Below, piece by piece: positions 1 through 22,478 of a stretch of DNA of 64,000 bases. Position 1 is the stretch's first letter, and each line of letters starts with the position of its first letter. This stretch comes from an uncultured Acidobacteriota bacterium (GTDB lineage: Bacteria; Acidobacteriota; Thermoanaerobaculia; Multivoradales; UBA5704), in assembly GCA_963756455.1 (NCBI GenBank), contig CAVWNC010000004.1, forward strand, positions 958,397-1,022,396, written 5' to 3'. A program made the translations under genes and the position numbers. The notes below the pieces were generated by a model. It was not told where the DNA came from. It saw only the letters and a list, made by a program, of their open reading frames with translations, and ran no database searches.

Positions 1-3000
1 TTGGGGACTCCCGTCGAGCCCGAGGTGTAGAGGACGTAGGCCAGAGCTTCTGCCGGCAGCGGTGGGAAACTGAAGCCTGCCGGCCCTTCCGGGCCCTCCA
101 GTCGATCGAGGCAGAGAGCGTCGACCCCGTGCTCGAGCAGCGCCTCAAGCCATCTCTCCACGGTGACGACGAGCGGCGCGCCGCTGTCTCTGACCAGGAG
201 CCCCAGGCGTTCCCGCGGATAGGAGGGATCGAGCGGCAGGTAGGCGCAACCGGCGGTGAGGATCGCCAGGGTCGCCACCACCTGGTCGGGCGACCGTTCC
301 AGGCAGAGGCCGATCCTCGCCCCCGGCCTCACGCCGCGAGCCTGGAGCCGCTCGGCGAGGCGGCCCGCCCGGCAGGCGAGGGCGTCATAGCTGAGGTGCA
401 GGGCGGCGCCCACGATGGCGACCGCGTCGGGCGCGAGCCGCGCCTGCTCGGCAAACAGCTCGTGGATCGAGCGGTCACGCGGGTAGGCCGGTCGACCGCC
501 GCTCCATTCGAGGCTCAGTTGTTGGCGCTCCGCGGCACCGAGAAGCGGCAGCTCCGACCGCCTCGCCGAGGGCCTGGCCGCCACTCCCGCGAGCAGCGTC
601 TCGAAGGCGGCTGCGAAGCGCTCCACCGTCGTCGCGTCGAACAGATCGCGCCGGTACTCCCAGGAGCTGACGAGACCTTCGGGGGTCTCGGTGAACGCCA
701 GGCTGAGATCGAACTTGGCCTCCGTACCCGCCACGGGCAGGGCCTCCAGGGTGAGGCCGGGGAGCTCCAGTCTCGCCGCCGGGGCATTCTGGAGGACGAG
801 GAGGACCTGGAAGATTGGGGAGTGGCTGAGGCTCCGCTCGGCCGCCACCTCGCCGACCAGACGCTCGAAGGGGAGATCCTGGTGGGCATAGTCGGCGAGG
901 ACCCCCCGCCGCACCCGCAGCAGGAGCGCGGTGAGCTCCGGGTCGCCGGTGAGATCCACCCGCAAGGCCAGAGTGTTGACGAAGAAGCCGATCAGTCCTT
1001 CGATCTCACCGCGGGTGCGGTTGGCGATCGGCGAGCCCACGACCACCTCTTCCTGGCCGCTGATCCGCGAGAGGAAGGTGCTCCAGACGGCGAGGAGCGC
1101 CATGAAGAGGGTCGACTCCGCGCCGGCCTTGCGTCGGCCGAGCTGCCGCAGGGCGCGATCGAGGGGCGCCGGTATCGCTCGCCGCAGGCGACCGGCGCGG
1201 CCAGCGGACCCGCCGGCCACGCGGGGTCGGTCGACCGGCAGCTCGAGAATCTCCGGCGCACCGGCGAGGCGGGCGCGCCAGTACTCCAACTGGAGCTCGA
1301 GCTCGCCACCGGCGAGCCACTCCCGCTGCCAGACCGCAAAGTCGGCGTACTGCAGCCCGAGATCCGGCAGGGTGGCGGCGCGGCGCGCCTGGAAGTCGGC
1401 GTAGAAGGCACCGATCTCGCGGACCAGGATCCCCATCGACCAGCCGTCCGAGATGATGTGGTGCTGGGTGACGAGGACGACGTGCTCGCCCGGCTCGTCG
1501 CGGAGATGGAGCAGGGTGAGCCGGAGGAGAGGACCCGCCGCCAGATCGAAGGGGCGACGCGCCTCGGCCCGCGCCAAACGACGGACCTCCTCTTCTCGGC
1601 GCGCGGCCGGCAGACCGGCGAGATCGACCTGAGGCAGGGCCTGCCGGACGGCCGGATGGATCTTCTGGACCGGCTCGCCGCCCGCCGTCGAAAAAGTGGT
1701 CCGGAGCGACTCGTGGCGCCGGAGGATCGCGGTGATCGCGGCGTCGAGAGCCGGCAGGTCGAGATGGCCCGAGAGGCGCAGAGCGGCCGGAATGTTGTAG
1801 GCGGTCGATTCCGGTTGCAGGCGATCGAGGACCCATAACCTCTCCTGAGCGAAGGAGAGCGGCAGCTCGCGGTCGCGAGCGACCGGCACGAGCGGCGGCG
1901 TCTGCCGTTCCCCGCCGGTCCGCGCCGCCAGGGCCGACTCGACCCGTTGTGCGAAGCTCGCCACGGTGGTCGCCTCGAAAAGGCTCTTGAGGGGGAGGTC
2001 GACGTCGAACGCTTGGCGCACCCGGGAGATCACCCGGGTGGCGAGCAGCGAGTGGCCCCCCAGAGCGAAGAAGCCATCCTCGGCTCCCACCCGATCGACC
2101 GCCAGGACCTCCCCCCAGATGGCGGCCACCAACTCCTCGACCGGCGAGCGGGGAGCGACGTAGGCCGGCTCGCCGGCGCCCTCCCCCCGCGGCGCGAGCC
2201 GAGCCAGAGCTTGGCGATCCACTTTGCCGTTGGGCGTGAGCGGCAGCACTGTGAGCGGGACGAAGCTCGCGGGGACCATGGCATCCGGCAGGCGTTCCCG
2301 GAGAAACGCCCGGAGAGAAGGACCGTTCACAGATTCCGCCGTCGAAAACGCCGCAACGTAGGCGGTCAGGCGCTTCTCACCGCCCTCCGTGCGGACCACA
2401 ACCGCCGCCGCCCGCACCGCGGGATGGGCCAAAAGCGCGGACTCGATCTCCCCCAATTCGATCCGGACGCCGCGGATCTTGACCTGGTCGTCGCGACGCC
2501 CCAGGTACTCGACCTCGCCTCCCCGCAGATGGCGCGCCAGGTCGCCTGTTTGGTAAAGACGGCTCCCCGGCTCGCCTTGAGGATCGGGGACGAAGCGCTC
2601 CGCCGTGAGATCCGGACGCCCCAGGTAACCTCGCCCCACCTGCGCGCCGCCGATATGGAGATCCCCGGCGACCCCGATCGGCACCGGTCGCATCCCATCG
2701 TCGAGATCGTCGAGAAGGACGATCCGGGTGTTCGCCACCGGTCGGCCGATGGGGACCACCGGCGTCTCCGGCACGCACTCCCAGAAGGTAACATCGACCG
2801 CCGCCTCGGTGGGGCCGTAGAGGTTCACGAGGCCCGCCGCCGGCAGGCGGCTCATGAAACGCTCCTGAAGGGAAGCCGGGAGCGCCTCGCCGCTCGCCAC
2901 CACCAGGCGGAGAGCCGTCGCGCGCTCACTGCCGGGCTCCGCTAGGAAGACCTGGAGCATCGCCGGCACGAAATGGGCGACCGTGATCTCCCGTTCCGCC

Positions 3001-22478: not shown

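Follow-up and report, generated by a model that had tools for sequence, protein, structure and literature searches.

An at least seven-module nonribosomal peptide synthetase of an uncultured acidobacterium that opens with a condensation domain and is predicted to receive its acyl group in trans

Analysis of a 64,000-nucleotide stretch of DNA from an uncultured Acidobacteriota bacterium (contig CAVWNC010000004.1 of assembly GCA_963756455.1, positions 958,397 to 1,022,396; hereafter the window) showed a giant nonribosomal peptide synthetase (NRPS) gene at its left end, followed by two permease genes, an island of lower G+C content, a class II lanthipeptide cluster, two atypical-kinase genes and a modular polyketide synthase (PKS) locus (Table 1). 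Both the nearest relatives and the ADOP-family permease genes indicate a Thermoanaerobaculia-like member of the Acidobacteriota as the source. The NRPS, and in particular its N-terminal condensation (C) domain, C1, is the subject of this study. Its reading frame on the minus strand ran from position 22526 to position 3 through 7,508 codons without a stop and continued past the left window edge; given the base composition of its own region (72% G+C), the chance of such a stop-free run is approximately 1e-55. The likeliest start is the ATG at 22526, which has an in-frame TGA directly upstream and an AGGAGG 11 nt upstream and lies 21–26 residues ahead of C1. A first-pass annotation made from the sequence alone had described the same C-first layout, which was borne out, but had started the protein at 22478, which is the next in-frame ATG.

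The domain order obtained with Pfam was four times C-A-T (A, adenylation; T, thiolation), then C-A-T-E (E, epimerisation), C-A-T and C-A with the last A cut, and a scan for core motifs (HHxxxD, TSGSTGxPK, NxYGPTE, GRxDxQVK, NGKVDR and GG[HD]S) returned an identical order. PF00668, PF00501, PF13193 and PF00550 were present in every module, and the E-values of the C and A domains lay between 1e-55 and 1e-100. With repeated C, A and T domains carrying their core motifs on one polypeptide, the protein is a multimodular type I NRPS. The domain after T5 matched both PF00668 and TIGR01720, and T5 itself carries GGDSI, the form of T domain typical ahead of an E domain. The C domain directly after it, C6, shared just 28–32% identity with the other C domains of the protein and aligned with the C domain that follows E in the PvdL-like model NF004282, as a DCL domain should; E5 and C6 together form the pair that marks incorporation of a D-residue. 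A second HH motif, as in dual E/C domains, was found in no C domain of the NRPS. The Pfam check proposed in the first-pass annotation confirmed its module series, and its uninterrupted frame of more than 22 kb, open at the edge, and the absence of a visible thioesterase also held, the frame running off the left edge. Its counts of at least seven modules and of exactly one D-residue, at position 5, stand for the visible part, which comprises six complete modules plus the C domain and first 151 residues of the A domain of a seventh, with a single E domain after T5; since the gene is cut by the window edge, both counts are lower bounds.

The Stachelhaus codes of A1–A6 were read by hand from motif anchors. 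They agreed with what we take to be the canonical codes of Stachelhaus (1999) at 8 of 10 positions for Ser, 9 of 10 for Gly, 7 of 10 for Asp and 8 of 10 for Val, and this agreement served as an internal check that the right positions had been read. The predicted product is likely N-acyl-(Val-like)-Ser-(Asp-like)-Gly-D-X-Ser-X…, its acyl group being supplied in trans. Searches for the missing end of the gene gave no continuation: an exact 50-mer from window positions 61–110 was unmatched in genome and metagenome contig collections, and a scan of metagenome contigs with the C7-A7 protein reached a best identity of 54%, with no usable orthologue. The relatives closest in C1 (L001, L002, L003 and P0001–P0004; 70–77% identity in that domain) were not co-linear with the window and therefore offered no guide to the missing end; the NRPS of L001 has a methyltransferase inserted in A1 and an E domain in module 3, and that of L002 has a 3-kb insert after T1.

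Upstream of the NRPS, only 121 bp separate its start from a divergently transcribed permease gene of the ADOP family, and these contain the in-frame stop, so there is no room for a loading module; the first-pass annotation had likewise described none. C1 is accordingly the first domain of the first module, the position expected of classical starter (Cs) domains. No fatty acyl-AMP ligase (FAAL) and no stand-alone acyl carrier protein (ACP) was found in the window by tblastn with FAAL-ACP queries, which matched only the A and T domains of the NRPS itself and the ACPs of the PKS at 47.6–64 kb, and a search for hidden ones found none in the Pfam-negative open reading frames (ORFs) at 27.6–34 kb and 38.5–40 kb. 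The earlier statement that no FAAL or acyl carrier gene lies nearby is correct for FAAL and free ACP, but carrier domains do exist in the PKS 25 kb away.

The type of C1 was assessed from rankings of scores against structures in the PDB, with a control set of relatives of the elongation domain C2 and with one classical Cs reference, PDB 7C1H, which is RzmA-Cs (PMC7804268). Within the protein, C1 was 35–39% identical to C2–C5 and C7, which are 48–65% identical among themselves, and 28% identical to the DCL domain C6. Both C1 and a 26-member C1 family profile ranked LCL-type structures at the top (Txo2, Txo1, 5U89 and TycC), with the first C domain of PvdL and AB3403 among their mid-ranking matches. 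C1 had no match to 7C1H at E ≤ 1e-5, where the elongation domain C2 scored 84 bits, and the family profile scored 83 bits on it vs. 445 bits on Txo2, the former being below its scores for E and Cy domains. Membership of C1 in the classical Cs group was rejected on these grounds. The active site is intact in C1 (HHIVAD), as are the invariant positions of its family. Placing C1 among starter, LCL and DCL domains, which had been suggested earlier as a check, gave a divided answer: it did not group with the classical starters, and it also stood apart from the ordinary LCL and DCL elongation domains elsewhere in the NRPS. C1 is no classical Cs domain and belongs to a separate LCL-related clade.

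The relatives of C1 pointed to the kind of carrier that this clade serves. Among its best 120 relatives in protein databases, a GxDS-type ACP was fused upstream in 21, five of which show a FAAL C-terminus, and a peptidyl carrier protein (PCP) in 2, vs. no ACP and 43 PCPs among the best 120 relatives of the control domain C2 (Fisher p = 2.8e-15). A second set comprised 80 genome loci with the nearest relatives of C1 (42–77% identity), retrieved partly via the peptide pattern HHIVADFW and deriving mainly from Pyrinomonadaceae, Blastocatellia and Thermoanaerobaculia, with some Nostocales and Chloroflexota. A FAAL-ACP of about 700 residues was fused in frame directly before the C domain in 65 of these loci and encoded by an adjacent ORF in one more (L031), so that 66/80 had it fused or adjacent; five or six loci opened with an ACP alone, and in eight the C domain itself came first. 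In a neighbour-joining tree (50 bootstrap replicates; C1-side taxa picked by similarity to C1), the C1 family stood apart from 43 PCP-fed controls and from C2–C7 of the window with 84% bootstrap support, and C1 paired with L002 at 100%. The residue following HHxxxD was Phe or Leu in 91/115 C1 relatives and Gly in 102/116 C2 relatives; C1, with HHIVADF, carries this HHxxxD[F/L] signature, a definition derived in this analysis rather than taken from the literature. C1 clusters with the C domains of FAAL-ACP-C lipoinitiation modules and apart from PCP-fed elongation domains, and the cis FAAL and ACP of such modules are missing from the window NRPS.

We read the locus as the first, and possibly the only, subunit of a lipopeptide NRPS in which C1 would N-acylate residue 1 with an acyl group donated in trans, and put the probability of this reading at roughly two in three. 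C1 would descend from FAAL-ACP-C initiation modules and would have lost its own cis FAAL and ACP. It would take an acyl thioester made by another protein, most probably a fatty acyl-S-ACP charged by a FAAL encoded elsewhere, and join the acyl group to the Val-like residue on T1. The chain would then be extended co-linearly by Ser, an Asp-like residue, Gly, X (epimerised to the D-form by E5 and accepted by the DCL-type C6), Ser and at least one more residue. The reading frame, the domain order, the E/DCL pair, the lack of cis or nearby loading domains and the clade membership of C1 are direct observations; we infer the acylating role of C1, its ACP-bound fatty acid donor, the residue specificities and everything beyond module 7. 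The first-pass annotation had equated an N-terminal C domain with lipoinitiation; that conclusion is supported by the FAAL-ACP starts of the relatives (66/80), their carriers (21:2) and the separate clade (84%), but position alone is no proof, because in a split NRPS all subunits but the first begin with a C domain too, and the layout is therefore not diagnostic. Its further statement that the acyl donor is supplied from elsewhere gained support from a window that holds neither FAAL nor free ACP.

Several points weigh against this reading. No FAAL or free ACP was present in the 41 kb upstream of the NRPS within the window, and the donor could be encoded beyond the left window edge. We know of no biochemical case in which exactly this clade works without an ACP in cis, C1 being outside the classical Cs group. 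The tree is limited by its method, its few replicates and its similarity-based choice of taxa. Phe after HHxxxD was seen in 80/80 genome loci, a count inflated by the use of HHIVADFW as a search pattern, and the counts among the database relatives are the fairer measure. Finally, two of the 120 C1 relatives (P0047 and P0117) sit behind an ordinary A-PCP, and one genome locus (L078) begins directly behind a further NRPS gene, so that non-initiating positions are open to members of the clade.

The last three cases would suit an NRPS that is a downstream subunit of a split system, in which C1 is fed with an aminoacyl or peptidyl chain by a PCP outside the window and an N-acyl group on the product is not required. 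Such subunits as a rule start with a C domain, and the LCL type of the best structural matches of C1 (Txo2, Txo1 and TycC) fits as well. However, PCPs made up just 2 of 23 fused upstream carriers in the C1 clade vs. 43/43 in the elongation control. No NRPS gene ended upstream on the same strand in the window, in L001 or in 7/8 C-only loci; the exception was L078, and the gene preceding it ends in a C-like domain rather than a carrier. A conserved short N-terminal leader was also lacking among the C-only relatives, which therefore have no docking domain. We consider a downstream subunit decidedly unlikely.

The surroundings of the related C-only genes bear on the nature of the donor. No FAAL was found within 10 kb of the start in the eight C-only loci or in L001 (where the upstream sequence is 7.8 kb, to the contig end), and neither FAAL nor ACP within 10 kb around L001, L002, L045, L046, L070, L074 and L080. 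The absence of both over 41 kb in the window and over 10 kb at seven related C-only loci is also what would be expected if C1 performed the same N-acylation with acyl-CoA, or with acyl-ACP from primary metabolism, taken directly and with no dedicated FAAL or ACP in the genome. Direct uptake of this kind has been proposed for RzmA, HolA and surfactin-type starter domains. Starter C domains are known from clusters without an ACP or ligase gene, which is a precedent for the preferred reading as well, and such a domain used acyl-CoA in vitro (PMC7804268). Against direct uptake, C1 is unrelated to the Cs clade of RzmA type, the great majority of its relatives are linked to an ACP that a FAAL loads, and FAAL-dependent systems are described as bypassing CoA activation (PMC8460268). 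Direct uptake by C1 is thus an unlikely explanation, and a FAAL-charged ACP remains the preferred donor.

A lineage that has lost its cis FAAL-ACP, with no donor found, might also have kept C1 as an unused vestige of a former FAAL-ACP-C loading module, in which case the peptide would start with a free amine. The intact HHIVAD site and invariant family positions speak against such decay, as does the identity of 72–77% over the full length of C1 to its nearest relatives. C-only starts moreover recur in several genomes, which argues for selection and therefore against a vestige, and we see next to no chance that C1 is one.

Within the tree, C1 belonged to a sub-clade of 11 (78%) that contained two FAAL-ACP-C, five ACP-C and four C-only starts, including that of the window. 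Pairs of loci from the same metagenome-assembled genome (MAG) shared their start type in three MAGs: L002 and L070 (C-only), L028 and L055 (ACP-C), and L049 and L079 (ACP-C). The series of start types and the same-MAG pairs suggest, short of proof, loading enzymes shared in trans. A tentative and rather doubtful extension is that the FAAL-ACP-C module was taken apart step by step in Acidobacteriota, to ACP-C and then to C alone, and that C1 and the ten clade members nearest to it preserve this series. The series would fit an unlinked loading cassette, of FAAL with or without ACP, that serves several assembly lines of a genome in trans. To our knowledge, such a cassette is undescribed for lipopeptide NRPSs.

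The C1 clade also holds free-standing C proteins of about 527 aa (521–536 aa; P0022, P0036, P0038, P0041–P0044, P0049, P0053 and P0057) with a conserved leader, LSPxEKRALLAQLLRKQA. In two further members (P0037 and P0052) the C domain is fused to a luciferase-like monooxygenase; a link to the luciferase-like gene of the window was dropped, the similarity being generic (24% identity). In L079, an adenylation domain interrupted by a luciferase-like monooxygenase (A-MOx type; 488–2575, minus strand) lies divergent from the ACP-C-type NRPS. Lys/Orn N-monooxygenase genes (L001 and L079) and FAD-dependent halogenase-like genes (L002 and L079) recur near related NRPSs, with no counterpart seen in the window, and may have a tailoring role in the wider NRPS family.

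The coordinates of all features are collected in Table 1. The two ADOP permeases are transcribed divergently from the NRPS, an arrangement also seen beside the NRPS of L001 (2688–5982), and one ADOP permease adjoins the NRPS of L079 (7139–9631). The two proteins are candidate exporters, but the family is abundant in Acidobacteriota. A DUF985 cupin gene is also present between the permeases and the PKS locus. The lower-GC island contains a tandem duplication with a spacing of 2.82 kb, and its two ORFs of about 390 aa share 68% overall identity, rising to 100% in a core of about 125 residues; no Pfam or NCBIfam match was found for either. The island may be a mobile or recently duplicated element.

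Table 1. Features of the 64,000-nucleotide window, with positions counted from its first letter.
Feature	Position	Strand	Evidence or remark
Giant NRPS gene	3..22526	-	5' complete, 3' cut by window edge; 7,508 aa visible; Pfam and open frame
C1, N-terminal condensation domain	21087..22463	-	PF00668 1.7e-84; active-site motif HHIVADFWS
A1-T1	19323..21032	-	code DAMWLGGTFK, Val-like; A10 motif NAKVDR, Lys kept
Module 2, C2(LCL)-A2-T2	16152..19250	-	code DVWHVSLVDK, Ser
Module 3, C3-A3-T3	12936..16073	-	code DSTKIGHVGK, Asp-like
Module 4, C4-A4-T4	9756..12872	-	code DILQLGLVWK, Gly
Module 5, C5-A5-T5-E5	5187..9686	-	code DVLTVGRIAK, no confident prediction; E5 at 5187-6512
Module 6, C6(DCL type, after E)-A6-T6	1941..5090	-	code DVWHVSLVDK, Ser
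Module 7, C7(LCL) and first 151 residues of A7	3..1871	-	cut just past core motif A3
Divergent intergenic region, NRPS start to first ADOP permease gene	22527..22647	.	121 bp
Two ADOP-family duplicated FtsX/MacB-type permease genes	22648-25062, 25120-27579	+	Pfam; TIGR03434 1003 and 908 bits, above cut-off
Lower-GC island	28000-34000		G+C 62-65% vs. 70-75% elsewhere
Tandem repeats of the island	29652-30638, 32478-33481		
Two duplicated island ORFs	29532-30707, 32492-33658	-	
Class II lanthipeptide cluster	34805-38397	-	
LanM	35014-38397	-	TIGR03897 853 bits; DUF4135 and LANC_like
Two adjacent ABC1 atypical-kinase genes	40588-45023	+	940 and 538 aa
Modular PKS locus	46281-63999	-	runs off right edge
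Luciferase-like monooxygenase gene	46281-47585	-	translationally coupled to second PKS gene
Second PKS gene	47585-57091	-	KS-AT-MT-KR-ACP-KS-(AT remnant)-ACP and alpha/beta-hydrolase (BD-FAE/Abhydrolase_3), no classical thioesterase
First PKS gene	57091-63999	-	…ACP-KS-AT-DH-cMT-KR-ACP

Directly downstream of LanM, on the same strand, lies a small ORF whose product from an internal Met is MKKLHVSRAFRDLDYYLSLSDAERAALPAHPAASIDVTGDQLKGVNGALTIGACSTRTSICSPCPPAVCP. Its C-terminal core is rich in Cys, Ser and Thr, and it could plausibly be the LanA precursor. The two ABC1 kinase genes lie between the lanthipeptide cluster and the PKS locus, and the first of them encodes an N-terminal extension of about 470 residues without a Pfam match. 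The PKS locus is separate from the lanthipeptide cluster; a PKS near LanM recalls hybrids of PKS and ribosomally synthesised and post-translationally modified peptide pathways, such as those of lipolanthine or goadvionin type. For the luciferase-like monooxygenase protein of the PKS locus, an exact look-up matched no record.

The position of this PKS, upstream of the NRPS and on the same strand, raises the possibility of a split PKS-NRPS hybrid in which the PKS at 47.6–64 kb builds the acyl chain and its last ACP hands the chain to C1. That ACP (approximately 48.9–49.1 kb) was the best match in the window to the ACPs that precede C1-type domains (E 7e-6 to 1e-4), and one relative (P0102), classed as ACP-C by a regex context test, has KR, PP-binding and Condensation Pfam domains. 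However, the similarity of the ACP is weak and generic, and the PKS ends in an alpha/beta-hydrolase domain of its own and is coupled to the monooxygenase gene. About 25 kb with the permeases, the island, the LanM/LanA pair and the two kinases lie between PKS and NRPS, and no PKS occurred upstream in L001 (7.8 kb, contig end) or L002 (10 kb). A hand-over from this PKS is very improbable, and a fatty acyl-ACP from an unlinked source is preferred as donor.

Acidobacteriota are abundant in soil, for the most part have not been cultured, and harbour many NRPS and PKS genes that are still unexplored. If the stepwise dismantling with its shared cassette is true, the product would represent a new acidobacterial lipopeptide family. 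As a candidate lipopeptide synthetase with seven or more modules, the locus is a concrete target for heterologous expression. Of modest interest are its host phylum, the size of the single protein (at least 7,508 aa), the unlinked acyl donor predicted for it, the series of start types and the same-MAG pairs. For annotation, an N-terminal C domain needs to be typed before lipoinitiation is deduced, since its position by itself is undiagnostic. The large and recognisable C clade described here (HHxxxD[F/L], nearest to LCL types) is wired to FAAL-loaded ACPs, and a comparison with Cs domains only would misread it as ordinary LCL. Where loading domains have moved off the synthetase, as in some of these lineages, tools that draw cluster boundaries would miss the acyl donor.

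Among known systems, AB3403 of Acinetobacter baumannii (PDB 4ZXH, C-A-T-TE) likewise has a C domain at its N-terminus and no donor carrier in cis, its donor being, we assume, a separate acyl carrier. It was one of the few solved C domains that scored relatively higher with C1 (139 bits) than with C2 (121 bits); unlike the window NRPS, it is a single-module enzyme. RzmA-Cs (PDB 7C1H; PMC7804268) resembles C1 in its N-terminal place in the first module, in the N-acylation of residue 1 predicted for C1 and in clusters that possibly have no ACP or ligase genes, but belongs to a different clade, keeps HHxxxDG and uses acyl-CoA in vitro. The cis FAAL/AL-ACP-C modules (the first C domain of PvdL, PDB 9LCQ, NF004282, and NRPSs of Acidobacteriota, Nostocales and Chloroflexota) are in the same clade as C1 with HHxxxD[F/L], and the PvdL-like model NF004282 aligns with C1 through its first C domain; they differ in that the window NRPS and its neighbourhood have no FAAL or ACP domains, and the PvdL C domain was a mid-ranking match (133 bits with C1, 279 bits with the family profile).

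Daptomycin-type pathways combine a trans FAAL, a free ACP and a specialised first C domain (PMC9113097). In daptomycin, A54145 and CDA (DptE FAAL, DptF ACP, DptA; PMC9113097), as in the window, the first NRPS protein begins with a C domain, loading domains in cis being absent; an acyl group on a separate carrier loaded by a FAAL would be expected here too, on a long multimodular lipopeptide. The two differ in host (Actinomycetota there, Acidobacteriota here) and in linkage, the FAAL and ACP genes adjoining the NRPS genes there, whereas none was found in the 41 kb upstream here, the downstream side lying beyond the window. The locus is an uncharacterised representative of a type of system already known and leaves the understanding of NRPS enzymology unchanged. 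In function, it looks like daptomycin-type trans lipoinitiation.

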